Shown: positions 16,768 through 40,046 of the stretch, one piece after another
Layout: each line of letters starts with the position of its first letter
How positions within the stretch are numbered: position 1 is the stretch's first letter
Assembly: GCA_027623675.1 (NCBI GenBank)
Contig: JAQBVF010000004.1
Location: 32,001 to 96,000 of the forward strand
DNA from: Chloroflexota bacterium
Lineage (GTDB): Bacteria; Chloroflexota; Dehalococcoidia; Lucifugimonadales; UBA3495
Direction: 5' to 3'
Length of the DNA: 64,000 nucleotides
Notes under the pieces: generated by a model
Told to the model about the DNA's origin: nothing
Seen by the model: the letters and a program-made list of their open reading frames with translations, nothing else
The model's database searches: none
Translations under genes and position numbers: made by a program

Positions 16768-18123
16768 TCATATTGATTTCGGCGCCTTGGCCCAGCCGTC
16801 GCCCCAGGGAACATCGGCAAGGTTCCTGGAGCGGCGCACTTCGTTGATGGTGAGGACGCCCCGGTCCAAAAGCTGCGCCTCACGCGAAACCCGGACGGAC
16901 TCGTCTTCGCTCAAACCCTCGATTGCGGAGAGGTCGAATTCAAGCTCCAGACCGGGGTACCCCAGGGCCGGAAAAAGGTTGCGTGTGACCTGGTCAGCGA
17001 TGAAGCGCATCTCAGGGACCATGGTATTGCGCCAGAAGAAACGCTCGGCGGCGTTCACGTTGGAGAATGTGGCCCGTTCCAGGTCCGACAGGAGCGGCTT
17101 GGGGACACCGTAGGTCCGGCTGACCTCCTCCAGGCTCCAACGCAGGCCCTGGATGAAGTCCATCTCGCGGTGGCTGATGCCCAGGGTTTTGATGTCCCGG
17201 ACAAAGCTGGCCACGGCGGGCCGGTGCGCTTGCGAGGGGCCGCGAAACCGGGCTTCCCAACGCCGGTAGAACTCCTCCATCTCGTTGTCGGTCATAGTCT
17301 CGTTGGTCAGCAAGACAAAGTCGGGTTGGGCGGAGTTGCGTAGGAAATTACGGTTGAATCGTAGGCTGTCCTTCCCCATGTCGGCCGACATGCGCAGCGG
17401 GGCGATGGGCGACAGGCCGGCGTAGTCTTCCAGCGGGTTGAAGTACCGGAACCAGACCATCTCGTCGGGCGTGTAGGCCACGCGCCCGTCCCGCCCGTTG
17501 TAGACGAATCCTCGGATGTGCTGGCCGCGGTCCGGTACGATGCTAACCCGGTCGGGCCGCAGGGGCCACAACTCTGGTTGCCCCTTCTCGTTGCGCTCGA
17601 TCGACCAGAAGGCAGACCCCCATAGGTTCAGGTAGATCTCCGTGGCCCGCCAGAGGTCGCTGCCGTTATACCAGCGGTTGGCGTGTTCCAAGATTCGTTG
17701 GGCCGGGTGGCCGCGTTCCACGGGCACCCGGCTCCCGGATTCAGTGGTGCGGTATACGACCGCCGGAGCGCGGCTCAGGGCGTCGGACCGCAACCGGATG
17801 GCTGCGTATACCGGCACCGAGGTGGCGTAATATTCGCCGTACTCGGTGCGTGCCCAACCGCCGTTGCTTCCGGCGAACCCTGGGAACCCGTCGACGTCCA
17901 CGGTTGACGCGCGGTTGGCCCGTTGGACGGTGTCCAAGTCTCGGGCTGAGTGTCTTGAAAACCCAGGCAGAAAACCTGGCGCCAGATCCAAAGCCTGTGC
18001 TATCAATCTGGATGCGGCCTGTTTAATCAGACCGTAGACTTGTCCCGTCGTCTGCCGCACGGCTGATTGCTCCGTCCTGGCCGTCTGGTTCGACGGCAGC
18101 GTGGATCTTTGCCTTTCTGTCAT
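16768..18123 (-). CDS. Phage portal protein, HK97 family
   Basis: VYAAI, LWGSAFW, LWPLRPDRV, GLSPI, YGVPKPLL, ATFSN, LTINEVR...WGD; ATG overlaps terminase TGA (ATGA). Confidence 0.93.
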   Translation of the reverse strand: MTERQRSTLPSNQTARTEQSAVRQTTGQVYGLIKQAASRLIAQALDLAPGFLPGFSRHSARDLDTVQRANRASTVDVDGFPGFAGSNGGWARTEYGEYYATSVPVYAAIRLRSDALSRAPAVVYRTTESGSRVPVERGHPAQRILEHANRWYNGSDLWRATEIYLNLWGSAFWSIERNEKGQPELWPLRPDRVSIVPDRGQHIRGFVYNGRDGRVAYTPDEMVWFRYFNPLEDYAGLSPIAPLRMSADMGKDSLRFNRNFLRNSAQPDFVLLTNETMTDNEMEEFYRRWEARFRGPSQAHRPAVASFVRDIKTLGISHREMDFIQGLRWSLEEVSRTYGVPKPLLSDLERATFSNVNAAERFFWRNTMVPEMRFIADQVTRNLFPALGYPGLELEFDLSAIEGLSEDESVRVSREAQLLDRGVLTINEVRRSRNLADVPWGDGWAKAPKSI

Positions 18124-19469
18124 ACCCACAACCTCGTTTTGTTGGCTGATTCCAAGAAGGCCAGCATCAGAGCGTCGGCTTTATCTGGGGATGGGAGTCC
18201 CCGTTGGCGCATGCCTTCTTTGCTTTCCATCTGGATCCGGCCTTGGCTGTCGTAGCTGTAGCGCAGGGCGGCCAATTCGCCCATCAACTGGTGGTCGTTG
18301 GGAATGGCGATCTCGCAGGCCGCGAATAGTTCCCTGAGCCGCCAGTAGCCTTCGGCGCGCAGGTTGGCGAATAGACCATCCTGGCCGGCACGGCGGGCCA
18401 CGTTGATGCCTTTTACCGGGTGACCCTGTTCCTTGAGGCGGTCGACCACGCCTGCTCCCACTCCGATCTCGTCGATACACACCCTTTCGGGAGAGGTGTC
18501 CCGGATGGCCGCGGCCACCCACCCGGCCAATCGCATGGTGTCCATGTTCCGGAAGGTCTGAATCTCCATCACCCGCCCGCCCTGCCTGCGGAGGATGACG
18601 CTGCGGTCGGAGCCGAACCGGGCCACGTCCACCGCCAGGATGACGTCTTCGCCGCTTTCATTGGCGCCGCTGGGTACAACAGCGGTCCAGCGGCACGCGG
18701 CCTCTTCCACGTCGGTCAGGCCGATCAAGGTGTCTTCGGCCTGGTCTGGGAATTCGCCCAGCACCCTGGCCCGATATATGGGGTTGTCCTCGCCCCAGGT
18801 CTCCCGGCGTTCCTCCACCCACCGGGCTGAGGTGAGCCCCGGCACCACCGATCTCCCTGCCTTGACGTTTGGGCTGTCCAAGGCGGAGATGGTGATGTTG
18901 TGGTAGAGGTGCCGTTCCTGGTAGAAGGCCCGGCGAAAGGCGCCGGTCACCGTGGTGGGATTGCCGATCAGCAGCAACAACGGATCGGCGGAGGTCATCA
19001 CGGCTTCGATGGCCTCGTAGATCTCGTCGCTAACGCCTTCCGCCTCGTCGACGACTATCAGCATGTTGGGGCTGTGAAACCCCTGGAACTGGTCGGCGTT
19101 CTCCGCGGACAGGCCCATGGCGTAGCGGTCGTCGGCGATCTCCCAGCGGGTGTCCAGCATCTTGCCGCCCAACAGCTCGGCGTGGGGCCGGAAAAGACGG
19201 TGGACCTGCCGCCAGAGGATGTGCCGCACCTGGCGGAATGTAGGGGCGGTGCTAAGGGCGATGGCGGCGTCTCGGTGCGTGTGCAAGAACCACAACAGGG
19301 TTACGGCGGCGCAGAAACCCTTGCCCAGGCCATTGCCCGATTTGACCGCAACCCGGCGGTGCCGCACCAATGAGTCGAGGACCTCTCGTTGTTTGTCCCA
19401 AAGATTGACGCCCAGTATGTCGGTGGCGAACTCAACTGGAGTCGGGGCGGTGCCCGAAGGTCCCGGCAT
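18120..19469 (-). CDS. Phage terminase large subunit
   Basis: Walker A-like VKSGNGLGKG, Walker B IVVDEAEG, IGNPT coupling motif, RNase H-like nuclease VDVARFGSD, DEIGVGAG, SPDKADAL; start estimated. Confidence 0.92.
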   Translation of the reverse strand: MPGPSGTAPTPVEFATDILGVNLWDKQREVLDSLVRHRRVAVKSGNGLGKGFCAAVTLLWFLHTHRDAAIALSTAPTFRQVRHILWRQVHRLFRPHAELLGGKMLDTRWEIADDRYAMGLSAENADQFQGFHSPNMLIVVDEAEGVSDEIYEAIEAVMTSADPLLLLIGNPTTVTGAFRRAFYQERHLYHNITISALDSPNVKAGRSVVPGLTSARWVEERRETWGEDNPIYRARVLGEFPDQAEDTLIGLTDVEEAACRWTAVVPSGANESGEDVILAVDVARFGSDRSVILRRQGGRVMEIQTFRNMDTMRLAGWVAAAIRDTSPERVCIDEIGVGAGVVDRLKEQGHPVKGINVARRAGQDGLFANLRAEGYWRLRELFAACEIAIPNDHQLMGELAALRYSYDSQGRIQMESKEGMRQRGLPSPDKADALMLAFLESANKTRLWV

Positions 19470-19474
19470 CCGGC

Positions 19475-19684
19475 CTAACTTTGGGCCGGATAGCCCGACT
19501 CTAATGCAGTGGTTCGCGGGCCGTGCTCTTGTTCGTGGGCGGCCTGGGAGGCGGGGCTGGCCGGCGGACTGGTTGGTGGGCTGAATAGGTAACCGCATTC
19601 CTGGCAGCGGAATACGTCGTTATCTTCTTGGGCTCGTTTTTCCAGGGGGATCAGTCGGGGAGACTGGCAACGTCGGCAATGCAA
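19475..19684 (-). CDS. Small zinc-ribbon protein (CxxC...CxxC) heading the terminase-portal operon
   Basis: MHCRRC...FRCQECGYLF; AGGAGG SD before TTG; ends 5 nt before terminase ATG. Confidence 0.7.
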   Translation of the reverse strand: MHCRRCQSPRLIPLEKRAQEDNDVFRCQECGYLFSPPTSPPASPASQAAHEQEHGPRTTALESGYPAQS

Positions 19685-19720
19685 AGCGTGTTACCTCCTG
19701 ATGGCGGTCAGATGTGGAAG

Positions 19721-19760
19721 CCAAAAAAAAGAACGGACCCTTCTTAGAGGGTCCGTCCCT
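19721..19760 (-). terminator. Leader terminator/attenuator upstream of terminase operon
   Basis: Minus strand GGACGGACCCT-CTAAGA-AGGGTCCGTTC-TTTTTTTT between promoter and SD. Confidence 0.75.
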
Positions 19761-19769
19761 GTTGGTAAC

Positions 19770-19799
19770 ACGCTAGGGTTCTGCAATCCAGGGTGTCAA
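19770..19799 (-). promoter_or_regulatory. Sigma70-like promoter of terminase-portal operon
   Basis: TTGACA-N18-TAGCGT on the minus strand. Confidence 0.6.
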
Positions 19800-19870
19800 T
19801 CGCCGGCCCGTCATCTCGGGACCGCCGTCTTGGCGTTGCATCACCCCTTACTCGGGGAGATTGGCCGGGA

Positions 19871-20056
19871 TTACGCGGGGTTGTGCTTGTTCAGGACCTC
19901 AGCGACACGAGGGTCGATGCTGCCCAGTTCGACTCCGCCGTCCGCCCTGGCAATGCCGAGGTGGGCGTCGCGCTGAATCTCTTCCCAGTCGGGCTCCAGT
20001 TCGTAGTTGTCCCGAAGCTCGTCAAACATGGCATCAAGGGATTTTTTGTCAAACAT
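19871..20056 (-). CDS. Small acidic hypothetical protein (61 aa)
   Basis: GGAGG SD before MFDKKSLDAMFDEL; host-like codon usage. Confidence 0.65.
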   Translation of the reverse strand: MFDKKSLDAMFDELRDNYELEPDWEEIQRDAHLGIARADGGVELGSIDPRVAEVLNKHNPA

Positions 20057-20315
20057 GATTTTCGGTGTCCTCCACTTGGTTTGTCGGCCGGTCATGGTCT
20101 GTACTTTAACTCGAGCAGACCCTCCAACAGCGGGCAAGTCCGACGTACAGTCTCTTTAGGGCCATATTGTGGCTGTTTCCAGCATAAACCATGCAGGCTG
20201 CAGCGAGGCCTAGTCTACAATTTTTCAATCAGCCTGGCAAGTGTCGATTCAGCCTCAATGAAACCGGGAATAGTCACGGTGGAACCGGGCTTGCCGGTCC
20301 GTGTGTCGATCAGGT

Positions 20316-20564
20316 CTATGGAACACGTTTTTCCGGTTTGACCTGGCCGCTGGTTGCGGCCTCCTCCGAGCGTCTCTTGCCCTGCAGCAAGTAGGCCGCG
20401 ACTATGAATAGGGGGATCGCAATGATGACCAGCCCCATCAGGGCGACCACAACCCACGGTCCTGTCCCAAAGAGCGAGTCCAACTTGGTTTTGATCCAGT
20501 GGACCAATTCCGGGTCGGCGGCGTCGCCTTGGTGGGCCAGGATAAAGGTGAAGAAGTGGACCAT
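20316..20564 (-). CDS. Small single-pass membrane protein
   Basis: Hydrophobic segment WVVVALMGLVIIAIPLFIVAAYLL; follows the MFS gene. Confidence 0.6.
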   Translation of the reverse strand: MVHFFTFILAHQGDAADPELVHWIKTKLDSLFGTGPWVVVALMGLVIIAIPLFIVAAYLLQGKRRSEEAATSGQVKPEKRVP

Positions 20565-20599
20565 CAGGACAAGACCATCACAGAGAAGGCATGAGGGGG

Positions 20600-21907
20600 T
20601 TAGTCCCCGGCAGCGGGCGCGGCTTCGACCGGTTTCTGGTAGCGTGCCGAGTATTTACGCTCTTTGATGGTGAACGCCGACAAGGCGGCCGGGAACAGGA
20701 GCGCCCCGACGATGGCGAAAGGCAGGGTATAGGAGCCAGTGACGTCGAAGAGCAGTCCGGCTAGCAGCACGCTGCTGAATCCGCCGATCTGGTGAAACAT
20801 GAACGTGATCCCGGAGATGGTCCCCAGGGCCTTGAGTCCGTACACGTCTGCCGTGAGAGAGGAGGTTAAGGGCAGGGTGGCGACCCAAGAGAATCCGGCC
20901 ACGCTGGCAAAGATCCACAGTCCGATGACTGAATCGATGGTCAAAAGCAGGATATAGGCCGTGCCCCGCATGAGATAGACCAAAGCCAACCAGTTCTTGG
21001 TGCCGCCGATCTTGTCGGCGAGCAAGCCGGCGCCCAGGGCTCCGATGATATTAAGGCCCATCATGTAGCCGAATATGGTGGCCGCGGTGCTCCCGGAGAT
21101 TCCCCGGTCTTCCATTGCGAAGGGTATGAAATGCACCGATAACACGAAAGTGGTGGTACCACAGACGAAATACGAGCCGGCCATCTGCCAGATGGGAGCA
21201 GACTTGAAGGACTGACGCCAATTCTCCACTTCCAGCGGTCCGGTGACTTCGCGGCGGGGCGCGCCCGCGGCGTCGGTCGGCGGCTCCGGGTCGCCGTCCG
21301 GGTAGAGTCCTTTCTTCGACGGCCGTTCGTGGATGAATAGATAGGCCAGGGGCAAGGAGAGCAGCACCACGATGCCCAAGCCAACCCATGCCGTGCGCCA
21401 GTTGGTGGCCTGGAGTAGGTACATGGAGAAGGGCACCATGATCATGCCACCCAAAGAGAGGGCAGCGGAGTTGATGCTGATGGCGGTGGCGCGCCGGCGC
21501 TTGAACCACCGCGACATCAACGCGGCGGTGTTGGACAGCGCCGGGCCGCTCTGCGCCATGGAGGCGACCACGCCGAACATGAATGCCAGGAACAAGATGT
21601 GGAAGGTCAAGGCCAGCATGGCAGTGGCGCCGCCCAGGACCATCAGGCTGATCAGGATCAGCTTGCGGCCACCGGTGCGGTCGAATATCTGGCCCATGAA
21701 AGGCTGGCTGAGGCCGTTGACCAGCACACCCAGAGCAGCGGCGATGGAGATGGTGAAGCGGTTCCAGCCGAATTCGTCGCTCATGGGTACCACGAAAACG
21801 CCGAAACTGTTGCGCGCTCCGATGGCCACAAACCCGATGAATACCGTGGCGGCGCAAACGTACCAGCCGTAGTAGGTGGGTTTCTTAGTTTTTTCGGTGT
21901 GTTGCAT
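20600..21907 (-). CDS. MFS transporter
   Basis: YYGW start, G.IFDRTGGR, WF.RRRA, G.LADKIG motifs, about 12 hydrophobic segments. Confidence 0.93.
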   Translation of the reverse strand: MQHTEKTKKPTYYGWYVCAATVFIGFVAIGARNSFGVFVVPMSDEFGWNRFTISIAAALGVLVNGLSQPFMGQIFDRTGGRKLILISLMVLGGATAMLALTFHILFLAFMFGVVASMAQSGPALSNTAALMSRWFKRRRATAISINSAALSLGGMIMVPFSMYLLQATNWRTAWVGLGIVVLLSLPLAYLFIHERPSKKGLYPDGDPEPPTDAAGAPRREVTGPLEVENWRQSFKSAPIWQMAGSYFVCGTTTFVLSVHFIPFAMEDRGISGSTAATIFGYMMGLNIIGALGAGLLADKIGGTKNWLALVYLMRGTAYILLLTIDSVIGLWIFASVAGFSWVATLPLTSSLTADVYGLKALGTISGITFMFHQIGGFSSVLLAGLLFDVTGSYTLPFAIVGALLFPAALSAFTIKERKYSARYQKPVEAAPAAGD

Positions 21908-22051
21908 CAGATATCAGACGTATTACGCCCCGAATCTGGCTAAGTCCTGGGTCAATCGCACGATGACCATCCAATGATATCACCATACCGGCGATGAATA
22001 GCAATGAAATTCGCGAATCTTGGATGCCGGGGAGAAGGGAGTGCTTGCCGG

Positions 22052-22888
22052 TCAGGTGGTCAGCCAATCACAGAACGCGTCAGCCGTGCCGGTCCCGCTG
22101 ATGGCCCTTAGCCGGCCATCGGCCAATAACTGCGCTGGTTTGAGCCGTCCCCAGACCAGGAGTGCCAGCGCTTCAGCGTCGCAAGCGAGGGTCGCAGTTG
22201 GTTCGCCCTGGGCTTCCTCAACCCTGGTCTCCTCTCGCCCCGCGGTAACGTCCCGCTGGAGATCGGCGGCGCCGGTGGTCTTGATCCGGTATCGGGCGGG
22301 CGTCGTTGCGGGCCGGAACCCGGCCAGGCCCAGGCTGTTTAGCCACACCGGCAGCCGGTCCAGTACCGGGGCCACGCAATCAGGCGTAAGGCCGGCTTTG
22401 GGGTCGGATGGGAAGCGGATGTCCCAGGAGTGAATCACCACTTCGCTGATGCGGGTCGTCACGTAGGCCGAGGCCGGCTGGAGTTGTCTCAGGCCCCAGC
22501 ATTCCTTGCGCCAGTCGGAATCCTCCATGATGGAAAATATGCCTTCCAGACGGTCGACGCTTGAATAAAATGCGTCTACCAGGTCGCTGTCAGCGGCGCT
22601 GCTGTATCCCTTGGCCACGCGGGCGATGAAATCTGGCAGCACGGTCAGGGGCATGGACCCGATCTCCGGCAAGCCCTCGGGGGCGGAGGTGACGCCGGCC
22701 CGGCCTTGGGCGATTGCGTCGGCGAAGAACTCGGCGGCCCAGCCCAGGTGGCCGATAACATCGCCAACGGTCCAACCTTCGCAGGGGCTGGCCAAGCCCC
22801 ATTCGTTCGAGGTGGTTCCCTGGAGGTATTCCTTGAGACGGCCGGTCTCGGCCGCAATGAGTTTTACCCCTTCCGCGGTCGAGACCAT
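22052..22888 (-). CDS. Maleylpyruvate isomerase-like (MDMPI_N/DinB superfamily) protein
   Basis: SPCEGWTVGDVIGHL and EVVIHSWDI motifs. Confidence 0.85.
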   Translation of the reverse strand: MVSTAEGVKLIAAETGRLKEYLQGTTSNEWGLASPCEGWTVGDVIGHLGWAAEFFADAIAQGRAGVTSAPEGLPEIGSMPLTVLPDFIARVAKGYSSAADSDLVDAFYSSVDRLEGIFSIMEDSDWRKECWGLRQLQPASAYVTTRISEVVIHSWDIRFPSDPKAGLTPDCVAPVLDRLPVWLNSLGLAGFRPATTPARYRIKTTGAADLQRDVTAGREETRVEEAQGEPTATLACDAEALALLVWGRLKPAQLLADGRLRAISGTGTADAFCDWLTT

Positions 22889-23074
22889 ATCACTCCTATC
22901 TGGCCATCGGCTGGATACAACTTAGCTGCCTAGCGAACAATCATGGTGAGCGTGTTGCATGACCTTTCCGCAGAATCGGTGCCTCGACAGGTCCACCATG
23001 AGCGGGGCGGACAGCAGTCACCATGACTGGTTGCGCAGCTAGGCGTCAGGAAGCTATGTCGGGCTAAGCCCCGG

Positions 23075-24571: not shown

Positions 24572-24711
24572 TGGGGACCTCCTAGGGGGTTCGATAATCG
24601 GGTAATTGGGTTTGATAAAGGGATTTTTCGATATTGGGTTTCAGCCTTTTTAGCGTGCACTATAATAGTCTGTCGAACATAAAGTCACAAGATATCGAGG
24701 GGAGAACGGTC

Positions 24712-25266
24712 ATGGACCGGTGCGCTTGGGCAGACAACGAGCTGATGACTGCTTACCACGACCAAGAGTGGGGAGTGCCGCTGCACGACGACCGTAAGTT
24801 GTTCGAGTTCCTAATCTTGGAGGGCGCTCAGGCGGGTCTCAGTTGGAACACCATCTTGCAGAAGCGGGAGACCTACCGGGCCGCCTTCGATAACTTTGAA
24901 CCCAAGATTATCGCCGGGTACGGAGACGCCAAAGTGCAGGAGTTGTTGGCCGACCCGGGCATCGTCCGCAACCGGCTCAAGATCGCCTCGGCCATCGGCA
25001 ACGCCAAGGCCTATCTGGCGGTGGTTGGGGAATTCGGCAGCTTCGATGCTTATGTGTGGGGATTCGTCGGAGGCCAGCCAAAAGCCGACGACCGGGTATC
25101 CATGTCAGAAGTCCCAGCCAAGACCGCCGATTCCGACGCCATGAGCAGGGATATGAAGGGCCGCGGGTTCAAGTTCGTCGGCTCTACCATCTGTTACGCC
25201 TTCATGCAGGCCACCGGCATGGTAAACGACCATACCGTTGATTGCTTCAGGCGTGGGCAAGTGTAG
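24712..25266 (+). CDS. tag: DNA-3-methyladenine glycosylase I
   Basis: RCAW, YHDQEWGVP, LEGAQAGLSW, IVRNRLKI, FVGSTICYAFMQA.GMVNDH. Confidence 0.96.
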   Translation: MDRCAWADNELMTAYHDQEWGVPLHDDRKLFEFLILEGAQAGLSWNTILQKRETYRAAFDNFEPKIIAGYGDAKVQELLADPGIVRNRLKIASAIGNAKAYLAVVGEFGSFDAYVWGFVGGQPKADDRVSMSEVPAKTADSDAMSRDMKGRGFKFVGSTICYAFMQATGMVNDHTVDCFRRGQV

Positions 25267-31037: not shown

Positions 31038-31472
31038 TTATTTGCTGTCTTTGGCGCGGTTATATTCCACGGTCACCGCGGTATGCAATCCGCCACGGAC
31101 CTTGTAGTCCAGGGTGATCTTCATGGATTGGGGCTGGCAGACGGCCACCAGGTCGTTGAGTATGCGGTTGGCGGCATGCTCCTGGACGATGCCCACGTCC
31201 CGGTAGGACAGCAGGTAGAACTTCAGCGATTTCAGCTCGATGCAGGAATCGCTGGGGACGTAGAAGATGCGCAGGTCACCGTAGTCGGGCAGTCCGGTCC
31301 ACGGGCATACGGCGGTGAATTCGTCGGTGTCTATCTCAACCTGGGACTGCTGGTCGGGGTATTCGTACCGGAAGGTGAGCAGGCATTCGGGGTTGATCGC
31401 CTCCTCCCCCTTGGCCGGCAGCTCCTGGTCCAAGCCTTGGTACTGTTCTTTCAAATCTCTGATGGTTGCCAT
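31038..31472 (-). CDS. queF: preQ1 synthase (nitrile reductase QueF, type I)
   Basis: EFTAVCPWTGLPDYG, ELKSLKFYLLSYR, EH, VRGG; GGAGG SD. Confidence 0.95.
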   Translation of the reverse strand: MATIRDLKEQYQGLDQELPAKGEEAINPECLLTFRYEYPDQQSQVEIDTDEFTAVCPWTGLPDYGDLRIFYVPSDSCIELKSLKFYLLSYRDVGIVQEHAANRILNDLVAVCQPQSMKITLDYKVRGGLHTAVTVEYNRAKDSK

Positions 31473-31537
31473 GCGCGCCTCCGTGGTGCCGTCCCGTTGG
31501 GTATCGTTCGCTTGATGTTCGCCGGGGCCTGGCAATA

Positions 31538-31567
31538 ATGATAGGTGGCTAGGCTGAGGGGTGTCAA
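31538..31567 (-). promoter_or_regulatory. Sigma70-like promoter of que operon
   Basis: TTGACA-N18-TATCAT on the minus strand. Confidence 0.6.
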
Positions 31568-31644
31568 AGCGTGTTGCGCGGTCCGGTGGCCGGAGATAAG
31601 ATACGGGCACCCTGGTTGGAGTCCGGTTGGGAGAGCATATCGCC

Positions 31645-32175
31645 ATGGCTCAAGCAGGCCTCGAAGCCCATTCGTTGAAAGGTTTGGACGCCATGTCCAT
31701 AGAGCAGGCACAGACGCTGTCTTTCCAAGAACGAGATGCACTGCTGGACCTGATCATCGCCGATGGCCGCCACGACGCCACCGGGGCGGTCTCCTACCGC
31801 TCGGGCATGTACACCGATTACTTCGAGGAAGACCTGACCCGGATGCTCAAGGTGAAGGCGGTCAAGGTCTACGTGCGGGGCACCACCTCCTCTAACTTCG
31901 ACGGACAGGTGGTCGGCGTGACCTTCATGGAGCAGTACCGGGCCTGTTTCCGGCACGTGGAGACCACGCTTGCGGCGGCCAGGACCAACTTTAGCCGCGT
32001 GGTCAATATGGTGGTCTTCCTGACGAACATAGATAATTGGGCCAAGTTCAACGAAGTGTTCCGCGAGTTCGTGCCCAACCCGCCCTGCCGAGCCGTGATT
32101 GGCGCCACCGGACTGGCCCAAAAGGCCATCGCCATCGAGATAGTCGACTGTTTCGCCTACCGGGTGGCGGACTAA
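31645..32175 (+). CDS. RidA/YjgF family protein with N-terminal extension
   Basis: EQYRACF..V...L...VVFLT...FNEVF.EF....PPCR..IG...L....IEI; start uncertain. Confidence 0.8.
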   Translation: MAQAGLEAHSLKGLDAMSIEQAQTLSFQERDALLDLIIADGRHDATGAVSYRSGMYTDYFEEDLTRMLKVKAVKVYVRGTTSSNFDGQVVGVTFMEQYRACFRHVETTLAAARTNFSRVVNMVVFLTNIDNWAKFNEVFREFVPNPPCRAVIGATGLAQKAIAIEIVDCFAYRVAD

Positions 32176-32262
32176 GTATTACCTGGTTTAACCTAAAACC
32201 GCTGCGCCTGCTGGGCGGCGGACCAGGCGCTTTCGAGAATCGAAACTGGATTGGAGGCAGAC

Positions 32263-32700
32263 ATGGCTAACCTGACATTGGCCTATAAAGTGCGCGGCTA
32301 CAGCACCGGCAACCTGGGCCGGGCCATCTGCAACGCCCGGACCCATCATTTTGTCGCTGACGATGGCGGCGGCGATGAAGTCGGCGCCGGCGAGTTCTTC
32401 TTCTCGGGCATCTCGGCCTGCGCGGTGAACATGGTGGAGCGCATCGCCGATCGAGACAAGATCGCCTTGGACTGGATGGACGTCAGCGTGGAGTCCTACC
32501 GCGACTCGGATGCCGACCACGGCGACCTGTCGCTCTACGACGCCATCCGGATCAAGTTCGAGATGTGGGGCGTGGACGACGAGGACGCCCAAAATCTGGT
32601 GGAGACCTGGAAAAAGCGTTGACCGCTTTACGGTTCGGTCGCCGTGGCGACTGCTGACACCACCGTGGAACTGGTCCACCATAGTGAAAAATATCGGTAG
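32263..32700 (+). CDS. OsmC/Ohr-like protein, predicted selenoprotein (U120)
   Basis: GISAC first Cys; in-frame TGA at 32620-32622 in KKR-U-PLYGSV, where the family has a C-P motif; frame continues to TAG 32700; SECIS-like hairpin follows. Confidence 0.85.
32623..32670 (+). promoter_or_regulatory. Bacterial SECIS-like element (OsmC-like gene)
   Basis: GTCGC-CGTG-GCGAC apical hairpin with GU at +22/+23; lower stem TTTACGGT/ACCGTGGA. Confidence 0.65.
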
Positions 32701-32783
32701 CTCATCCGGCCGGCGGTTGGCCGCCGGCAGCCAATAGCTAATTGCCAACCAAACGGCTGATGCCTGTCAGTCAGAGAGGATAT

Positions 32784-33719
32784 ATGCGAATCTGCTCTTT
32801 CCTGCCCAGCTCCACCGAGATGGTGTACGACCTAGGTCTCCAGGACCAACTGTACGGCGTGACCCATGAGTGCGACTACCCCCCCGAGGCGCGGAACAAA
32901 CCGCATGTGGTCCATAGCGTCTTCGAAGGCCAGGAGCCGACCAGCGGCGAGATCAGCAAGGTCATCTCCGAGCGTTTGGCCCAGGGCTTGGGCATCTATG
33001 AGATAGACACCAGATTGCTGCAGGAAGCCGAACCGGACCTGCTAATAACTCAAGCCATCTGCGAGGTTTGAGCAATCTCGTCTCGGCAGGTGGCCGAGGT
33101 TAGCATCGGACTGGCAAAGCAACCGGAGATCTTATCGTTGGACCCGCTTCATATCGGCGACGTCGTTGAAGACCTCAACCGCCTTGGACGCGCCACGGGC
33201 ACCGAGGCCAAGGCGGCGGAAATCACCGCCGGACTCACCGCCCGGATCGAAGCGGTGACCCTGCGGGCCAAGGACGCCGACAAGCATCCCAGCGTGCTCC
33301 ACGTGGAATGGGCGGAGCCGGTGATGTGTGGTGGCCATTGGGTGCCCGAGATGACCGAGTTGGCCGGCGGGACCAACAGTTTCGGCGACAAAGACACCGG
33401 GACGCTGAAGCTGGATTGGGACGAGGTATTGGCCAGCCAGCCTGAGGTCATCATCATGATGCCCTGCGGCTTCGACGTTAAGCGCGGCCTGGAAGATGTG
33501 CCGCTGATGGCCGCGAAAGAGGGTTGGGCGTCGCTGCCGGCAGTGAGGAACAACCGTGTCTACGTGGTTGACGCCGGGGCCTACACCAGCCGCTCCGGCC
33601 CAAGGCTGGTAACCGGCTTGGAGATCATGGCTGAGATGATTCACCCCGAACTGTTCTCGGGCATGATTCCGGAGGGGGCGGCGCTGCGTCTCTTCGGTGA
33701 CCTGGCCAAGACGAGCTAG
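32784..33719 (+). CDS. BtuF/TroA-like cobalamin/Fe-siderophore-binding fold protein, predicted selenoprotein (CxxU, U96)
   Basis: MRICSFLPSSTE, GVTHECDYP, TQAICEV-TGA-AIS (family pattern TQxxCxVCA), GHWVPEM, MPCGF, SRSGPRL; both track ORFs share one frame. Confidence 0.88.
33072..33104 (+). promoter_or_regulatory. Bacterial SECIS-like element (BtuF-like gene)
   Basis: TCTCGGC-AGGTG-GCCGAGG hairpin, loop GU at +19/+20 after TGA. Confidence 0.65.
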
Positions 33720-33756
33720 TTCATCGGCGGTCCCTGGCCGACGGCCGCAAGAATCG

Positions 33757-34428
33757 TTAATTAAGGCGCGGCCCTTGAAACGGGTTCTGCTTGGTGACGC
33801 GCTCCCGCAGTGCCTCGTTGCCCTGCCGTAGCAGGGGTATCAGGTCCGACAGGCGGGTGGCTGCCGTCTCGGTCACCAACAGGCTCTGACGCAGGTGTGT
33901 CTCCAGTTCCAGGTTGGCGGCGATGGCGTAGGACAATTCGATGGGGTCTTCCGGGATGGCGACCCTTGATGTGTACCCGCCGGTGAGCGCGGTCAGGTTA
34001 CGGACCAGTGCCACGTACTCGTCGTTGACCTGGGGCACGAGATCGGCACATCCCTCGCCTGCCAACTCCACCAGATACCGCACCCGACCAACGATATGCG
34101 GCACACGCTGGACAATCTCCTCGATCTCGAAACGCCTCTGGCCCTTGGTCAGGATGTTCATGCGCCCCTGGTCCAATAGCTCGGAACTGAGTATCCGGGT
34201 AGACGTGCCGATGCGTTCCGGCTCGGCCGGCGAGCCGACCTCCAGACCTTCCTTGATCAACACGACTCCGAAAGGCGCATCATCTCTGAGGCACTCCCCA
34301 ATCATGTTCTGGTAGCGCTCTTCAAAGATGTGGAGCGGCAGGTCCTGGCCCGGAAACAGCACCAGGTTCAATGGGAATAGTGGGAGGTCGGTCAATCCGT
34401 CTCGGGACTCTGGCTCACGTTGTTCCAT
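33757..34428 (-). CDS. Stand-alone Lon protease N-terminal substrate-binding domain protein
   Basis: LPLFPL.LVLFPG..LPLHIFEERY...FGVVLI..G.EVG. Confidence 0.92.
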   Translation of the reverse strand: MEQREPESRDGLTDLPLFPLNLVLFPGQDLPLHIFEERYQNMIGECLRDDAPFGVVLIKEGLEVGSPAEPERIGTSTRILSSELLDQGRMNILTKGQRRFEIEEIVQRVPHIVGRVRYLVELAGEGCADLVPQVNDEYVALVRNLTALTGGYTSRVAIPEDPIELSYAIAANLELETHLRQSLLVTETAATRLSDLIPLLRQGNEALRERVTKQNPFQGPRLN

Positions 34429-34471
34429 AACTCTTCGAGTATATTACCTGCGTTCGCGCCAGAACAAGATT

Positions 34472-34819
34472 CTAGCGTCGGTTCTTGGCTCCACGGACCC
34501 TGAAACCGGTGGGACCTTTCTGATGGCGGGCCCACCGCAGAAAATTGGCGACATCGGCGTCGGCCCGCAGCGCATCGATGGAATTCAACTCTTTGGCCAA
34601 TGTGGACTCGGAGAACATGGCGTGGATTTGCCGGTGACACGTGGGGCAGAGCCTGGCTTGAGGGCCGAACCTGCCGCCCCGCGACCGGGGAACCAGGTGA
34701 TGAGTGGTGAACCGCGGCGATTCCCGGCGGCATAACTCGCATACCTGACGATTATGCGCTGGCCGCGTTTGCTCCGTGACCTCGGTCTGTACCGAATCGG
34801 CGGAGTTTCGCCGCGCCAT
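34472..34819 (-). CDS. Small HNH endonuclease-like protein
   Basis: CELC...TTHHLVPRSRGG...LCPTCHRQIH. Confidence 0.85.
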   Translation of the reverse strand: MARRNSADSVQTEVTEQTRPAHNRQVCELCRRESPRFTTHHLVPRSRGGRFGPQARLCPTCHRQIHAMFSESTLAKELNSIDALRADADVANFLRWARHQKGPTGFRVRGAKNRR

Positions 34820-34822
34820 GTA

Positions 34823-35308
34823 TCAGGATTTGTCCGGCACTTCCAGGAAGCGCCATCCCGGAAGGTCAACCTGCCAGTCCTCGTCCTCCCACAACATGGG
34901 AAGGATCAGGCCGTTCATGGCCCGCCCGTGTTCAACCTCGGTGGTGTCGCTCTCCATCCCGAAGGGAAGAAAGGCGAAGGCGTGGATATCGTCCAGATAG
35001 CTGGTGGGCGAGATCCCCAGGTCCGTCAGGTCCTCCAGCGGCCAGAGACTTAAGACAGTCTTCCGAAAGTCGTCCAGCATGGCGGGCCGCAGCGGATGGT
35101 CGTCGTTGTAACCGGCGCGGTAGGCGTCTTGCATATTGATGTGGTTGCGCGTCGCCCACACGCCCATCCGCATGCCGCGAGTCTCCTTGGAGAGCATGGA
35201 CCAGGCCAGGTCCATGTCGCCGTCTCTGACAGCCTCGGCGAAGACCCCGGCCCGGCTGCCGCAGCTATCGGGAAATGGGCTTCGTTTTTCTCCTGGTATG
35301 CGCATCAA
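34823..35308 (-). CDS. Hypothetical protein
   Basis: Co-oriented with ggt and the HNH gene, short gaps, host-like codon usage. Confidence 0.65.
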   Translation of the reverse strand: MMRIPGEKRSPFPDSCGSRAGVFAEAVRDGDMDLAWSMLSKETRGMRMGVWATRNHINMQDAYRAGYNDDHPLRPAMLDDFRKTVLSLWPLEDLTDLGISPTSYLDDIHAFAFLPFGMESDTTEVEHGRAMNGLILPMLWEDEDWQVDLPGWRFLEVPDKS

Positions 35309-35346
35309 TGGTCCTTTGACTTGTTATCGGCAAAAGTGATTGGGGC

Positions 35347-37077
35347 CTACCAACCGACAGCATAGCCGTCGCGGCGGGGGTCGGCGGCGCCGTGCAGGGC
35401 GCCCGTATCCGGGTCAACCTGAATCATCATCTCACTGCCCTGTGCGCCCCAATCGGACATCATGTTCAACCGGTGGCCCCGGCCCTCAAGCCCGGAGCGG
35501 ACACCGGCATCGAACCGGGACTCCATATGCAACAGATTATCACAGACATGGGGAACGTTAGACTCGGTCGGACTGTGGGAATTTCGCCAGCGGGGGGCCT
35601 CCACCGCCTCGGCCACGGTCATGCCAAAGTCGATAAGATGGGTGATCACCTGCATGTTGGTCTGCACCTGGGTGTCCGCGCCAGGGGTGCCGCAAACCAG
35701 CGACAGCCGGCCATCGCCGCCGGCAGCCCCTCCTGCGTTCTCATTGGACGCCGGACCATTGCCTTTGAAGACCATCACCGGGTTCATGGTGTGGCGCACG
35801 CGCTTGCCGGGTTGAAGGCAGTCCACGTGCTCTGGGTCCAAGTGCCAGTAGGTCATGCGGTTGTTCAGCAGTATTCCGGTGTTGCCCGCCACGATGCTGG
35901 ACCCCAGGGAACTCTGGATGCTCTGGAGCTGGCACACCGCGTTGCCCCATCGGTCAACGATCACGAAGCAGGTGGTGTCTTCTTCCTGGACTGCGCCGGT
36001 TGTCACCCGTCCCGCGCTTCCAGAGCCGTTCTGGTAGGCCCAGGGGTCGCCGTGGGCCGGGTCGGCCGCCCGGTTGGGGTCGATGAGCTTGGCCCGCTCC
36101 TTGGCGTACTCCTTGGAGATCAGGCCCTGGGTGGGGACATCGGTGTGGTCCGGGTCGGCCATGTAGGCCTCACGGTCGATGAAAGCCAGCTTCTTGGCTT
36201 CCACCATCAGGTGGATACTCTCTGCTGAGTTGCAGCCCATGGCCTGGAGGTCGTACTGCTCCACCATGTTCAATTCTTGCAGCAACACGTGGCCGCTAGA
36301 GTTGGGCGGCGCTTCGTATACCGTGTGCCCCTTGTAGGTGGTGGAGATTGGTTCCTCCCAACGAGAACGGCAACCCGCCAGGTCTTTCATCGACAGGATG
36401 CCCCCCTGCTCCTGAATGAACCGGACCATCGCCTGGGCAATCTCACCCTCATAGAACGCGTCCCGGCCTCCGTCCACGATGGCCTGGAACGATTTGGCCA
36501 GGTCTTTCTGGTAGATGATCTCTCCCGGCTGGAATGGTTTTCCGTCGTGTGTGAAGATGGCCCGCGATGTGGGAAATTCACACAGCAGAGGGTCGCCGGT
36601 AATCACGCCGGACAAGACGTGCGTCACCGGAAAGCCGTTTTCCGCCAGGTCGATGGCCGGGGCGAACAGCTCGGCCAACTTGAGCGTGGCGTATTTCTCA
36701 TGGGCCGCCATCCAGCCGTCCACCAGTCCTGGCACCGACACCGACATGACCCCCATTTGGGGGATGCCGGTCGCCTGGTAACTTGCCAGGTCGGTGGCGT
36801 ATGGCGCCGCCCCGGTGGCGTTACAGATGTCGATCTTATTCTGGGCTTTGTTGTAGATCATGATGTAGCCGTCGCCGCCGATCCCAGACATATTGGGTTC
36901 GACCACGTTCAGGGCTGCGGCGGTGGCGATGGCGGCGTCAACCGCGTTCCCGCCCTTCTGCAGCACCGACATGCCGGCCTGGGCGGCCAGCGGGTGCCCG
37001 GCGCAAACCATGCCGTTCTTACCCATGACCACGGGCCGGTTGGACTCAAACTTAACGCCGTGGGGTGACTGCACCAT
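35347..37077 (-). CDS. ggt: Gamma-glutamyltransferase family protein
   Basis: GGNAVDAA, SGIGGDG, VPGLVDGW, PPNS, EDTT nucleophile, LNNRM, GTPGAD.Q, AADPRRDG. Confidence 0.93.
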   Translation of the reverse strand: MVQSPHGVKFESNRPVVMGKNGMVCAGHPLAAQAGMSVLQKGGNAVDAAIATAAALNVVEPNMSGIGGDGYIMIYNKAQNKIDICNATGAAPYATDLASYQATGIPQMGVMSVSVPGLVDGWMAAHEKYATLKLAELFAPAIDLAENGFPVTHVLSGVITGDPLLCEFPTSRAIFTHDGKPFQPGEIIYQKDLAKSFQAIVDGGRDAFYEGEIAQAMVRFIQEQGGILSMKDLAGCRSRWEEPISTTYKGHTVYEAPPNSSGHVLLQELNMVEQYDLQAMGCNSAESIHLMVEAKKLAFIDREAYMADPDHTDVPTQGLISKEYAKERAKLIDPNRAADPAHGDPWAYQNGSGSAGRVTTGAVQEEDTTCFVIVDRWGNAVCQLQSIQSSLGSSIVAGNTGILLNNRMTYWHLDPEHVDCLQPGKRVRHTMNPVMVFKGNGPASNENAGGAAGGDGRLSLVCGTPGADTQVQTNMQVITHLIDFGMTVAEAVEAPRWRNSHSPTESNVPHVCDNLLHMESRFDAGVRSGLEGRGHRLNMMSDWGAQGSEMMIQVDPDTGALHGAADPRRDGYAVGW

Positions 37078-37244
37078 GATGATGGTCTCCTAGAAGTACT
37101 CCCCTCTCTCATGGCAGAGGGGGTGGATGGGTGTAGCGATTTCGCAGGCAGGGATGGCGATCCAGCGCGTCCCAGCGAGTCAATGAAAAATGGGCCTCAG
37201 AATTCTGAAGCCCATCTTGGTCTCTTTAGTTGTGGTTGCTGTGC

Positions 37245-37619
37245 CTAGTGGCTGCCGCAACCGCCGCTGCCGCAACCGCAGCCCCCGCCGCCGCTGCCAC
37301 AGCCGCATCCGCTGCCGCAACCGCCAGAGCTGGCGAACATGGGGTTGTTAATCACGAAGCCCACCTGGCCGCCCAGGTTCTCCACGTAATCGATCGTCGC
37401 CTCTTCCAGGAAGGGCGCGCTGTCTGAGTCCATGAGGAAGTTGACTCCCTCTTTGGCCAAGACCGTGTCGTCAGCCTGGGTCTCGGTCTCCATGGTCAGC
37501 ATATATTGAAGTCCGCCCGTTTCAGCGGGAATGGCGACCACCCGCAGCGAACCATCAGTTTCACCCTGTTCGTGCATGACTTCCTTGAGCTTCTCGATGG
37601 CGAGGGTTGTTACTTCCAT
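37245..37619 (-). CDS. HesB/IscA/ErpA-like Fe-S carrier with Cys/Gly-rich tail
   Basis: LRV, Y.L, D.DS...L....IDY......GF.INNP; tail GGCGSGCGCGSGGGGCGCGSGGCGSH. Confidence 0.85.
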   Translation of the reverse strand: MEVTTLAIEKLKEVMHEQGETDGSLRVVAIPAETGGLQYMLTMETETQADDTVLAKEGVNFLMDSDSAPFLEEATIDYVENLGGQVGFVINNPMFASSGGCGSGCGCGSGGGGCGCGSGGCGSH

Positions 37620-37815
37620 TTCCTGTTCTCCTTGGGAACTTTCCGGGAGACCGTCTGGCGATCGACGCCATTTAATCTCTAGGTGTTAAAGCTAACACAG
37701 ACGGAAATGTCCAGTCAACGCCGGGACGGGTCTGGCAGAGCCACTCTGATCGATCATTCTAAGTGCCCTCAGGGTGAGGCACGGCGCGTCGGGACACAAA
37801 CGTGTCAGACCCGCG

Positions 37816-37845
37816 TTGACACTCTGTAAAGCGCGTTTCTACACT
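37816..37845 (+). promoter_or_regulatory. Sigma70-like promoter of protease-capsid operon
   Basis: TTGACA-N18-TACACT. Confidence 0.65.
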
Positions 37846-37921
37846 CAATCTCAGCAGCTTAGACCACATACCGCACAGGCGTCCGGACTTTGGTCCGGAG
37901 ACAGGATCTTGGCAGTTTTCC

Positions 37922-37960
37922 AAGGGGACCGACCCTTAAGGGTCGGTCCCCTTTTTTTGG
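37922..37960 (+). terminator. Leader terminator/attenuator upstream of protease-capsid operon
   Basis: GGGGACCGACCC-TTAA-GGGTCGGTCCCC-TTTTTTT, about 50 nt before the start codon. Confidence 0.8.
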
Positions 37961-38010
37961 ACCACCACGCATCAGATTAATGAAATTGATTATTGATTTA
38001 AGGAGGGGAA

Positions 38011-38838
38011 ATGCCGACTAGCACCCACCGATCCGGGTTGGACCGCCGCCTTTTGTTGGAGTCGCTGCAAGCCTTCAGCCGGGGCGCCCAAGAAGCGCCA
38101 CTGGTCACCAAGTGGACCCACTTTCCTGGGTTTGAACCAGGGCCCGGACCTGGGAATGAATCGCCAGTTGGGATATCCGCCAAGTACTCGGGTGAAGACC
38201 CGGCTGGCGGAGCGGTCACGTTCGTTCTCTCCACCGACGATGTGGACCGGCACGGCGATATCATCAGCGCCGATGGCTGGGTCCTGGATTCCTACCGTGA
38301 GAACCCCGTACTGCTCTGGGCCCACGACTACCGGCATCCGGCGATCGGCCGGGCGGCTAAATTGTGGGCCGAGCCCCACCGGCTCCTGGCAATCATGGAG
38401 TTCGCCCCCACCGGATTCGCCCAAGAGATCGCGTCGTTGTACCGGTCGGGATTCCAGTGGGGAGTCTCGGTGGGGTTCAAGCCCCTGCGCTACGAAGAGC
38501 GGCGGGACGAGAAGACTGGAGCGTTCCTGGGCCTAAGGTTCTTGGAGCAAGAACTGCTTGAAGTGAGCGCGGTCCCGGTGCCCGCCAACCGCAGCGCCCT
38601 CCGCCGGGACGGTCAGCCTGACCGTGATGCTTTGACCGCGCTATGGCCGGTGCTGGCGTCGCAGGTTGATGAGTTGGTCAAACTGGCTGAGGAGATATCG
38701 GACACGGTGGCCGAACTGGAAAATACCGCCAAAGCCGCCAGACATTCAGCCGTACATGATTCTAAACCGGCTAAACAGTCTGCACAGGCGGTCTCGGTCC
38801 CGGGCCTGATGGAGGTGCTGCGTTCCGGCCGGAACTGA
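38011..38838 (+). CDS. HK97-family phage prohead protease
   Basis: FVLSTDDVDRHGDII...GW.LD.Y..NPVLLWAHD, IG, SVGF.P, QELLEVSAVPVPANR; AAGGAGG SD. Confidence 0.93.
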   Translation: MPTSTHRSGLDRRLLLESLQAFSRGAQEAPLVTKWTHFPGFEPGPGPGNESPVGISAKYSGEDPAGGAVTFVLSTDDVDRHGDIISADGWVLDSYRENPVLLWAHDYRHPAIGRAAKLWAEPHRLLAIMEFAPTGFAQEIASLYRSGFQWGVSVGFKPLRYEERRDEKTGAFLGLRFLEQELLEVSAVPVPANRSALRRDGQPDRDALTALWPVLASQVDELVKLAEEISDTVAELENTAKAARHSAVHDSKPAKQSAQAVSVPGLMEVLRSGRN

Positions 38839-38964
38839 CCTGAGCTGCTTAGACGAAACGACAGCCAAAGGGATAGACGCACAGAGCATGTGACCCCATC
38901 GCACGACACACGGGCGGTCCACCCTCGGCCCTGGCGGGCAATCAAATCAAACTAGGAGTTGACC

Positions 38965-40014
38965 ATGACTATCGCGGCGCAAGACTTGGAACTGATAAAA
39001 AGGGAGCTGTCCAGCATCCGGGAATTCTACGACTCCAGGATCGACGCGGAGATCCCTCCCCTCAAAGAGGAATTGGACCGCATCGGCGGGCAGTTGAGCC
39101 AGGTGCAGGAGATGTGGCGGGATGGGGAGAAGCGGTCCCTGCTGTCCCGCCACGCCGGCGAAAGGTCCAGGGTTGCTTTCGGAAAATACGCCGGACTGGA
39201 CCATCTGGACATGGCCTGCGTGCGCAGCCTGCTAACCGCCCAGATGCGTGAGCCTTCTGGCGTCAACCCCCGCATGCTGGACGACTGGCAGTCCAACCTG
39301 AAGGCGGCCATGGACTCCACGTCTTCCGGCTCCGGCGACGAACTGGTGGATACTCAAGAAGCCCGGGCGCTGTGGGACGACGTCAATCTGGAGACCTCGA
39401 TCGCTCCCCTGTTCAACACCGTGCAGATGCCCAGCAACCCCTTTCAGATCCCCCTGCAGATGGGCGACGTCAACTGGTATCCCGGCACTGAGAACGTGGC
39501 GACCAAGAGCACCAGCCTGACCACCGCCCGCCAGACCCTGACCGCCTACGAGCTGGTCGCCGAGGTTCCCTGGTCCTACGACCTGGACGAGGACTCGGTC
39601 ATCGCCATGATGGAGGAACTCCGGCGCAGCCTGATGCGAAACGCCCGCGAGGTGATCGACGACGTGATCTTGAACGGCGACACCACCGCAACCAACAACA
39701 TCAACGCCGACGGGACCACCATCGCCAGCACCGACGCGGGCAAGGGCCAATGGCTGCTGGGGTTCGACGGCCTGCTGCATCTGCCGCTGGTGGACAACAC
39801 CGGCCAGAGCATTGACCACAACGCCGCCGTCTCCGATGACATGTTTAACGAGGTCCGCTCCAAGCTGGGCAAGTACGGGGTGCGGCCCTCCGAAGCGGTC
39901 TACGTCACCGACGTGAACACCTTCATAAGGTCGCTCAGCGTTTCCAACTTCCGCACGCTGGACAAATTCGGCCCCCAGGCAACCCTGGCGATCCGGCAAC
40001 CAAGCAAACGTTAA
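38965..40014 (+). CDS. HK97-fold major capsid protein (C-terminus appears truncated)
   Basis: N-terminal coiled-coil (delta-like) segment, GDELV, QMPSNPFQIP, LDEDS, ILNGDT, GFDGL, LGKYGV.P; ends abruptly after KFGPQATL. Confidence 0.82.
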   Translation: MTIAAQDLELIKRELSSIREFYDSRIDAEIPPLKEELDRIGGQLSQVQEMWRDGEKRSLLSRHAGERSRVAFGKYAGLDHLDMACVRSLLTAQMREPSGVNPRMLDDWQSNLKAAMDSTSSGSGDELVDTQEARALWDDVNLETSIAPLFNTVQMPSNPFQIPLQMGDVNWYPGTENVATKSTSLTTARQTLTAYELVAEVPWSYDLDEDSVIAMMEELRRSLMRNAREVIDDVILNGDTTATNNINADGTTIASTDAGKGQWLLGFDGLLHLPLVDNTGQSIDHNAAVSDDMFNEVRSKLGKYGVRPSEAVYVTDVNTFIRSLSVSNFRTLDKFGPQATLAIRQPSKR

Positions 40015-40046
40015 CGGCGGGCTATTTGCCCGCCGTTATTTTTTTC
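40012..40046 (+). terminator. Intrinsic terminator overlapping the capsid stop
   Basis: TAACGGCGGGC-TATTT-GCCCGCCGTTA-TTTTTTT. Confidence 0.85.

Follow-up and report, generated by a model that had tools for sequence, protein, structure and literature searches.

We analyzed a 64,000-nucleotide stretch of DNA from a Chloroflexota bacterium (assembly GCA_027623675.1, contig JAQBVF010000004.1; the whole stretch is called the window below), in which two units of phage-derived genes for head assembly and DNA packaging lie on opposite strands, separated by host genes. On balance, these units are probably the remains of an ancient phage-derived head-assembly and packaging set that SAR202-type Dehalococcoidia have inherited vertically as chromosomal genes. 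The evidence lies in conserved gene order, in selection, in trees that follow host families and in a leader element common to both operons. A deletion has struck the major capsid protein (MCP) gene and the genes behind it in this genome, which apparently holds a broken member of an order-wide, head-only system resembling gene transfer agents (GTAs) or phage-inducible chromosomal islands that form capsids (cf-PICIs). Intact members would produce particles and may serve in transfer or in defence.

Background

Domesticated phage particles are known from few lineages. RcGTA-type GTAs of Alphaproteobacteria comprise phage-derived genes for terminase, portal, protease, HK97 capsid and adaptor, spread over more than one locus and unaccompanied by genes for integration or replication, and have been inherited vertically over deep host divergence under purifying selection. 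cf-PICIs carry an integrase and a replication module. A preprint describes them as encoding their own capsid and packaging genes and no tails, and as releasing tail-less, DNA-filled capsids that borrow phage tails (bioRxiv 10.1101/2025.02.11.637232).

A first-pass annotation of the window had proposed that the two units form a domesticated packaging and capsid system in a lineage not known to have a characterised GTA. As to the lineage, our literature searches likewise found no description of a GTA-like system in SAR202, Dehalococcoidia or Chloroflexi, and the order-wide head-only system has apparently gone undescribed so far. As to the system, the proposal is supported for the clade and is not supported for a working system in this genome, where the capsid is truncated and the genes downstream are deleted. 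SAR202-type Dehalococcoidia form a group of very high abundance, found in the deep ocean and with sponges. A head-only packaging system conserved across many families of Dehalococcoidia would, if real, contribute a new lineage as well as a new architecture (tail-less, with dispersed head genes and a shared antitermination-type switch); it would be a chromosomally fixed counterpart of capsid-forming satellites and a concrete candidate route by which genes might be exchanged, or phages interfered with, in an uncultured, globally abundant clade. The genome of the window provides a datable loss-of-function event in such a system.

Two head-gene units in one genome

The genome of the window (G000; SAR202-type Dehalococcoidia; assembly 3.07 Mb, 91% complete) carries the units at 16768-19684 (minus strand) and 38011-40014 (plus strand), with about 18 kb of host genes (MFS, MDMPI, tcuA, tag, ADH, PrpD, queE/C/D/F, Lon-N, ggt, IscA) between them. 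Pfam, TIGR and PHROG matches (Table 1) bear out this reading, which the first-pass annotation had made from the letters. It had also judged the terminase, portal and protease motifs to look intact, and the open reading frames (ORFs) of these genes are: the invariant motif residues of the large terminase (TerL) are kept (G50/K51, E143, D282/D289, D334 and D430/D433), and the catalytic His105 and Ser153 of the protease are invariant. TerL is carried in a longer ORF, 18120-19598 (minus strand), and its true start is probably the ATG at 19472, directly past the stop of the Zn-ribbon ORF; the region upstream of this ATG has stops in sister species. Composition is host-like in the four large phage-derived genes, as had been noted (GC 0.61-0.64 and GC at third codon positions, GC3, 0.73-0.86, with GC3 0.71-0.85 in host neighbours); the 69-aa Zn-ribbon ORF has a lower GC3 of 0.61.

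A Pfam scan of the 68 window ORFs turned up no protein of the integrase, repressor, tail or lysis kind, nor a complete replication module. Integrase, tail and lysis genes were likewise not found around the module in the window and in the flanks of two other loci (L073, L100), and neither an integrase nor an att-type repeat was seen near the units. The earlier statement that the window lacks genes of these kinds stands with one qualification: an ORF of 340 aa between the units (Table 1) resembles a primase C-terminal domain in its last ~80 residues. It is intact and shows a ratio of nonsynonymous to synonymous substitution (dN/dS) of 0.10-0.21 in the genus. We rejected it as a component of the head system because it is found in the window's family (f1) alone, in 6 of 7 genomes there and in none elsewhere among 121; it is probably not part of that system.

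Conservation and distribution in the order

The check for orthologs and host-gene synteny that the first-pass annotation had suggested came out in its favor. In four sister species (G003, G005, G002, G012) the ~25-kb arrangement is conserved gene for gene, in the order S9 peptidase, portal, TerL, host genes, IscA, protease and MCP. In another genus of the same family (G022), portal-TerL adjoins the S9 peptidase gene and protease-MCP adjoins ECH-FtsJ-CinA, with the units 1.6 Mb apart. Relatives of the MCP are encoded in 273 genome stretches, and the nearest loci belong to the SAR202 cluster, Dehalococcoidia and Chloroflexota metagenome-assembled genomes (MAGs). Among the 80 loci that we kept for counting, each reaching up to 10 kb to either side of the capsid gene, the protease adjoins the MCP in 79, 63 have a gene for a head-to-tail adaptor (d6), and in 46 IscA is found upstream. 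TerL and portal lie inside the MCP locus in just 5 of the 80, so the split is the rule and not a peculiarity of G000.

We also surveyed 121 genomes of the order, each at least 95% complete. The MCP is present in 59 and the portal in 65, and all 59 MCP-positive genomes are also portal-positive. Both genes are nearly always single copy and lie between 3 kb and ~2.5 Mb apart. The patchy, strain-specific distribution that the first-pass annotation had named as refuting was not what we saw across these genomes: presence is all or none per family (for example 7/7, 7/7 and 4/4 versus 0/7, 0/7 and 0/6).

In other lineages, genes of the defence or methylation type occupy the space between the head units: L021 (genome G028; 8741-9994) has a CAP12/Pycsar-type TIR-domain protein there, and L100 (7562-8497) encodes a Dam-type methyltransferase on the opposite strand. 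Separately, 25 short IMG/VR contigs filed as viral (L113-L136, L173) encode capsids at least 70% identical to this family. About 12 of the 25 show IscA and/or ggt beside the module (e.g., L113, L114, L118, L119, L121, L124-L127, L130, L173), and the shorter ones carry module genes only. Such contigs are often fragments of host chromosome, and the module therefore inflates SAR202 virus calls.

Selection and phylogeny

The head genes are under purifying selection and are inherited vertically. By the Nei-Gojobori method, comparing G000 with the four sister species, dN/dS is 0.05-0.08 for the retained part of the MCP, 0.065-0.13 for the portal, 0.09-0.16 for the protease and 0.10-0.18 for TerL, at dS values of 0.6-2 that are partly saturated and similar for phage-derived and host genes. 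The resulting range of 0.05-0.18 is like that of neighboring host genes (0.03-0.23), which supports the domestication proposal on the comparison that it had itself put forward.

For the trees, we used 40 of the 59 positive genomes together with G000, G003 and two phage contigs; 19 were left out, including those with split or duplicated matches. Tree searches were quick ones, SH-aLRT was the sole support measure, and coded groups served as family labels. In the portal tree all 12 multi-member families form clades with support of at least 95; in the MCP tree 9 of the 12 do so at that support and the other 3 are compatible. The family labels need 14 changes, which is the minimum, against a mean of 34.4 when labels are shuffled (none of 200 shuffles was as low). 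Two superclades recur in both trees, as does the internal structure of the window's family.

A capsid deletion in the genome of the window

The first-pass annotation had overlooked a deletion in the capsid gene. The MCP of G000 is 351 aa long against ~445 aa in all close relatives, and the conserved last ~100 residues are gone: the protein tracks its family to about residue 345 and then runs into a short, unrelated, out-of-register tail. DNA similarity to the four sister species (blastn) ends at 39986/7 and restarts at 40016, a point that lies 84 nt past d6, the last operon gene, in G002. The lost DNA amounts to ~3.5 kb (4.3 kb relative to G002, where an insertion sequence (IS) element also sits) and in sister species comprises the 3' end of the capsid gene plus six genes, d1-d6, which include decoration/cement-like genes and the head-tail adaptor. 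With tblastn, neither d1-d6 nor the capsid C-terminus was found anywhere in the G000 assembly.

We considered misassembly and rejected it as the cause of the truncation, since a 5240-nt contig from another assembler (run X1) crosses the junction and shows no differences over 39523-40400; runs X1 and X2 may be source samples of G000 and are not independent sampling. MCP profile positions 286-425 are those most like solved capsid proteins, and because they are partly deleted, about half of the conserved capsid core is gone. The capsid gene of G000 is very probably dead and, with the capsid C-terminus and the downstream head and adaptor genes deleted, no capsid can form in this genome. The loss seems to be recent, as the still intact terminase, portal and protease suggest.

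A control signature common to both operons

As had been stated, each unit has a promoter-like element of its own and a terminator-like hairpin ends the protease-capsid unit (Table 1). The two promoters share an extended motif, GTTGACACCYTGGA. That of the terminase operon, missed by a simple consensus scan, is kept in 4/4 aligned TerL leaders; at that of the protease operon, the block GCGTTGACACYCTGGAAAGCGCGTTTCTACACTCAAT is kept with few substitutions in 8/8 aligned species. Behind each promoter, the leader contains a terminator-like hairpin of common form, GGGAC-N-GACC(C)...GGGTC-N-GTCCC and then a T-run.

A regular expression for this hairpin has just two matches in the 3.07 Mb of G000, both in the operon leaders, and is positive in 59 of 91 protease leaders and 8 of 17 TerL leaders. 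The two best G000 sites of a covariance model built on 60 leaders are again the protease leader (48.4 bits) and the terminase leader (39.4 bits). The third site (22.9 bits) was rejected as an ordinary terminator with a different stem, as were weaker matches in G000, G037 and G024 that might have marked further operons and proved to be ordinary terminators with other stems. A search for further hairpin-bearing operons in 5 relatives with the strict pattern matched protease leaders only. At gathering thresholds, no Rfam family matched anywhere in the window.

Pairing covers 91.6% of cells in the 60 aligned leaders, and the central pair 18:38 covaries (AU 26, GC 14, CG 7, GU 4, UG 3, UA 2). Because G:U pairs are frequent, the hairpin fits an RNA structure better than a DNA operator. 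Our reading is of a leader terminator that may keep both operons off unless read-through is induced.

One position of the protease-operon hairpin varies: at 37929, in the 5' arm, a minority C>T occurs in the two runs with this DNA (10.8/77 and 7.8/17.5 depth). The change would turn a C:G pair into U:G, with pairing kept.

Gene content of the intact set

In intact genomes, the first operon encodes the Zn-ribbon protein, large terminase and portal, and the second encodes the protease, HK97 capsid, lineage-specific small head proteins and the head-to-tail adaptor. The small head proteins of this genus include two jelly-roll, cement-like paralogues, d4 and d5. None of d1-d5 has a PHROG or Pfam match, and a d4 sequence profile found no match in the PDB. 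The predicted structure of d4 (predicted local distance difference test, pLDDT, 93.7) is a jelly roll whose nearest neighbor is a phage cement protein (E=2e-4); that of d6 (pLDDT 79.6) comes closest to head-to-tail adaptors, the RcGTA neck protein among them, at weak E values of 1e-3 to 2e-2.

The Zn-ribbon protein may be a small-terminase-like or regulatory subunit. Of 17 loci examined, 10 have a frame with two CxxC pairs upstream of TerL; none of 4 phage contigs does. In our alignment (A5), Cys3, Cys6, Cys27 and Cys30 are invariant, and the ORF is kept across families. Its 166 homologues carry no functional annotation: most are unnamed, others bear names such as "hypothetical protein", one is called "transposase-like protein" and one "rubredoxin", and the organisms named among them are Dehalococcoidia or Chloroflexi. 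A complex prediction for TerL and the Zn-ribbon protein scored 0.00, with the fold of the partner uncertain.

The chromosomal modules of this genus end at the adaptor, and 12-14 of the 80 loci continue with a tail terminator, a tube protein and a 700-aa protein. The scan of the rest of the genome for tail genes, also suggested with the original proposal, did not help it: tube, tail-terminator and tape-measure families were not found in G000.

Elsewhere in G000, contigs C17 (15644-16945; L285:6644-7945) and C13 (112942-113268; L286:5942-6268) encode distant homologues, at 29-41% identity, of two proteins, of 538/547 aa and 96 aa, that other lineages encode at the distal end of their head module. 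They sit among host genes without the leader hairpin and may be further dispersed parts of the system or unrelated paralogues.

From these parts, one can sketch how an intact set would work. Once a read-through (antitermination) signal released both operons from the hold of the hairpin, their products would assemble into HK97-like capsids, the terminase would fill these with DNA via the portal and the adaptor would close them. The outcome would be tail-less particles, or stub-tailed ones where tail-terminator and tube genes are kept, acting in the manner of a GTA or a capsid-forming PICI. The divergent layout, with 18 kb of host genes in between, would most simply go back to an old inversion, one of whose breaks fell between portal and protease. 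That the order as a whole maintains a vertically inherited, head-only machine of this kind, its operons switched jointly by leader read-through and its tail-less, DNA-filled capsids serving as a tail-borrowing GTA or a phage-diverting defence, is a tentative proposal in which our confidence falls somewhat short of even.

Comparison with known systems

The set resembles GTAs in its evolutionary mode and capsid-forming PICIs in its gene content. Like RcGTA, it comprises packaging and head genes without integrase, excision or replication genes (in the 68 window ORFs and the L073 and L100 flanks), lies at more than one locus and has long been inherited vertically under purifying selection, with the caveat of one phage-like contig inside a chromosomal clade, and the adaptor fold of d6 resembles the RcGTA neck protein (PDB 6te8, 6toa, 6tba). 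Unlike RcGTA, it has no tape measure, baseplate or lysis genes that we could find, and most of its lineages have no tail genes at all. Its head genes are split over two distant operons with a private leader-terminator signature, and a Zn-ribbon ORF occupies the small-terminase position. The complete gene set for a delivery-competent particle of head and tail that marks a GTA was not found, and the copy in G000 is broken, having lost the adaptor and part of the capsid.

Taken over the clade, the set shares with cf-PICIs, as the preprint describes them, its own capsid, portal, terminase and connector without a tail, the capsid and connector being truncated or deleted in G000. cf-PICIs are compact, mobile islands, whereas the SAR202 set shows no integrase, no att-type repeat near the units and no complete replication module, is dispersed (units 18 kb to 2.5 Mb apart), has a fixed host context and tracks host phylogeny.

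Chloroflexota HK97-like siphophages (IMG/VR L152, L168) carry homologues of the terminase, portal, protease, capsid (40-54% identity) and adaptor in matching order. The phage contigs run from terminase through a portal that includes a fused MuF-like domain, protease, capsid, small genes and adaptor to genes for a tail terminator, a pair of tube proteins, a tail completion protein and a tape measure; in contrast to the chromosomal set, they have the MuF-like fusion and no Zn-ribbon ORF or leader hairpin. The contiguous terminase-portal-protease-capsid-tail-lysis order with integrase of a functional HK97-like prophage was not found in G000. Encapsulins, too, are HK97-fold shell proteins kept as host genes; unlike them, the SAR202 shell gene is accompanied by protease, portal, terminase and adaptor genes and matches phage-capsid models only (PF05065/TIGR01554). 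No encapsulin model in Pfam matched at E<=0.001, and no cargo gene was seen.

Weighing the alternatives

In the genus of the window, the set is eroding, with terminase/portal deletions in at least six other species. A full-length capsid ORF is present in nine other species. The MCP is kept without the portal in G008 and G012, and TerL and portal are kept without a whole MCP in G000. This pattern, together with the low dN/dS, fits a function that was maintained while the set was complete, followed by repeated, recent piecemeal loss in this genus, of which G000 is one case.

A number of results weigh against a vertically inherited, functioning head set. The TerL-portal locus, at a constant position, has been cut by deletions of varied extent in six genomes (G008, G001, G006, G012, G018, G019). 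The frames of G000 TerL, portal and protease are intact; elsewhere, the MCP of G014 carries stops, the portal of G002 has a possible frameshift, internal stops occur in one MCP (G137) and one portal (G049) among the 40 genomes of the trees, and the portals of G136 and G042 are split into two matches. Since either half can be kept without the other, the two may not depend on each other. The agreement of the MCP and portal trees with host families carries a caveat: the phage-like tailed contig L152 nests beside or inside one chromosomal superclade in both trees, and more than one capture, or recombination with phages, is possible. The leader hairpin has 1 match among 57 sources from distant families and phage contigs (the TerL leader of G035). 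Absences in the survey are soft because most genomes are MAGs. Finally, no lysis genes were found in the searches, the tape measure (phrog_991) was found in 0 of 5 genomes and tail genes occur in some lineages only, so a delivery mechanism is missing.

Some of these results could also arise if the set had been domesticated for another job: interference with phage assembly or packaging (defence or tail stealing), or a protein compartment made by capsid and protease, with terminase and portal kept separately. The independent loss of the two halves suits this explanation, as does the failure to find tail or lysis genes in most lineages, and the existence of related tailed phage contigs with capsids 40-54% identical and a homologous adaptor, along with the TIR-domain defence-type gene between the units in G028, points the same way. 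We nevertheless think it rather unlikely. Every one of the 59 MCP-positive genomes has the portal as well, the catalytic residues of both terminase domains are kept, and the one control signature on both operons fits one joint function that includes packaging. Against a protein compartment in particular, the capsid matches phage capsid models, no encapsulin model in Pfam reached E<=0.001 and no cargo gene was seen.

An ordinary defective prophage in neutral decay, its copies in relatives being repeated integrations at a preferred site, would account for the truncated capsid of G000, the many deletions in the genus, the IS insertions within the module of G002 and G025 and the nesting of a tailed phage-like contig in the trees. 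This is improbable, because dN/dS stays at 0.05-0.18 at dS 0.6-2, the split, down to the host genes inside and flanking it, is identical in several species, the genes occur as single copies that whole families either have or lack, the trees track host families and neither integrase nor att-type repeat turned up near the units. A mobile phage satellite of the capsid-forming PICI type, still moving with phage help, would match the head-only structural genes with an adaptor and the primase C-terminal-like ORF between the units, but it is very improbable given a fixed chromosomal context, units 18 kb apart in G000 and up to 2.5 Mb elsewhere, a primase-like ORF restricted to one family (6/7 there, 0 elsewhere in the sample) and neither an integrase nor a complete replication module.

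Features of the window and further observations

Table 1. Positions of the phage-derived genes, control elements and related features in the window
Feature	Position	Strand	Evidence and remarks
Portal, HK97 type, ORF intact	16768-18129	-	PF04860 E=6.6e-70, TIGR01537
Large terminase (ATPase and nuclease), ORF intact	18120-19472	-	phrog_2 E=7e-40, no Pfam match
Zn-ribbon protein, 69 aa, first gene of terminase operon	19475-19684	-	CRRC...RCxxCGYLFSP; two CxxC pairs, other frame than TerL
Leader terminator-like hairpin, terminase operon	19729-19760	-	GGGACGGACCC...GGGTCCGTTC and T-run; between promoter and Zn-ribbon ORF
Promoter-like element, terminase operon	19799-19770	-	TTGACA 19799-19794, 18-nt spacer, TAGCGT 19775-19770
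Primase C-terminal-like ORF, 340 aa	26430-27452	+	Last ~80 residues like P4/D5-type domain; PF03288, phrog_1156
Promoter-like element, protease-capsid operon	37816-37845	+	TTGACA, 18 nt, TACACT; 10/12 consensus matches
Leader terminator-like hairpin, protease-capsid operon	37922-37953	+	GGGGACCGACCC-TTAA-GGGTCGGTCCCC and T-run; 5' leader
Prohead (S78/HK97-type) serine protease, ORF intact	38011-38838	+	PF04586 E=9e-6, TIGR01543, phrog_80; C-terminal scaffold-like tail
HK97-fold MCP gene, 3'-truncated	38959-40014	+	TIGR01554 E=3.8e-15; also PF05065
Deletion junction	39987-40016	.	blastn end points
Terminator-like hairpin ending protease-capsid operon	40012-40038	+	Homologous stretch in sister species lies after adaptor d6

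Three observations in the window lie outside the head set. A BtuF/Peripla_BP_2-type binding-protein gene at 32742-33719 (plus strand) is read as two same-frame ORFs, 32742-33071 and 33090-33719, separated by one TGA; read as selenocysteine, this codon would give a C-E-V-U (CxxU) motif. Both halves are 84-93% identical in sister species, where the gap is likewise kept, and the gene is a candidate selenoprotein.

ORFs of 185, 186 and 182 aa in 31564-32748 and 19793-20341 show dN/dS of ~0.7-1.9 and have stops in relatives, while dS is unusually low (0.12-0.28 and 0.14-0.54 in the two stretches, respectively). The DNA of both is conserved, but not as these reading frames; within 31400-33200, Rfam gave no match at E<=0.1.

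Lastly, a DUF433/DUF5615 (PIN-like) pair at 50068-51124 (plus strand) stands between cobO and cobT within a row of cobalamin-salvage genes and is a probable toxin-antitoxin module.

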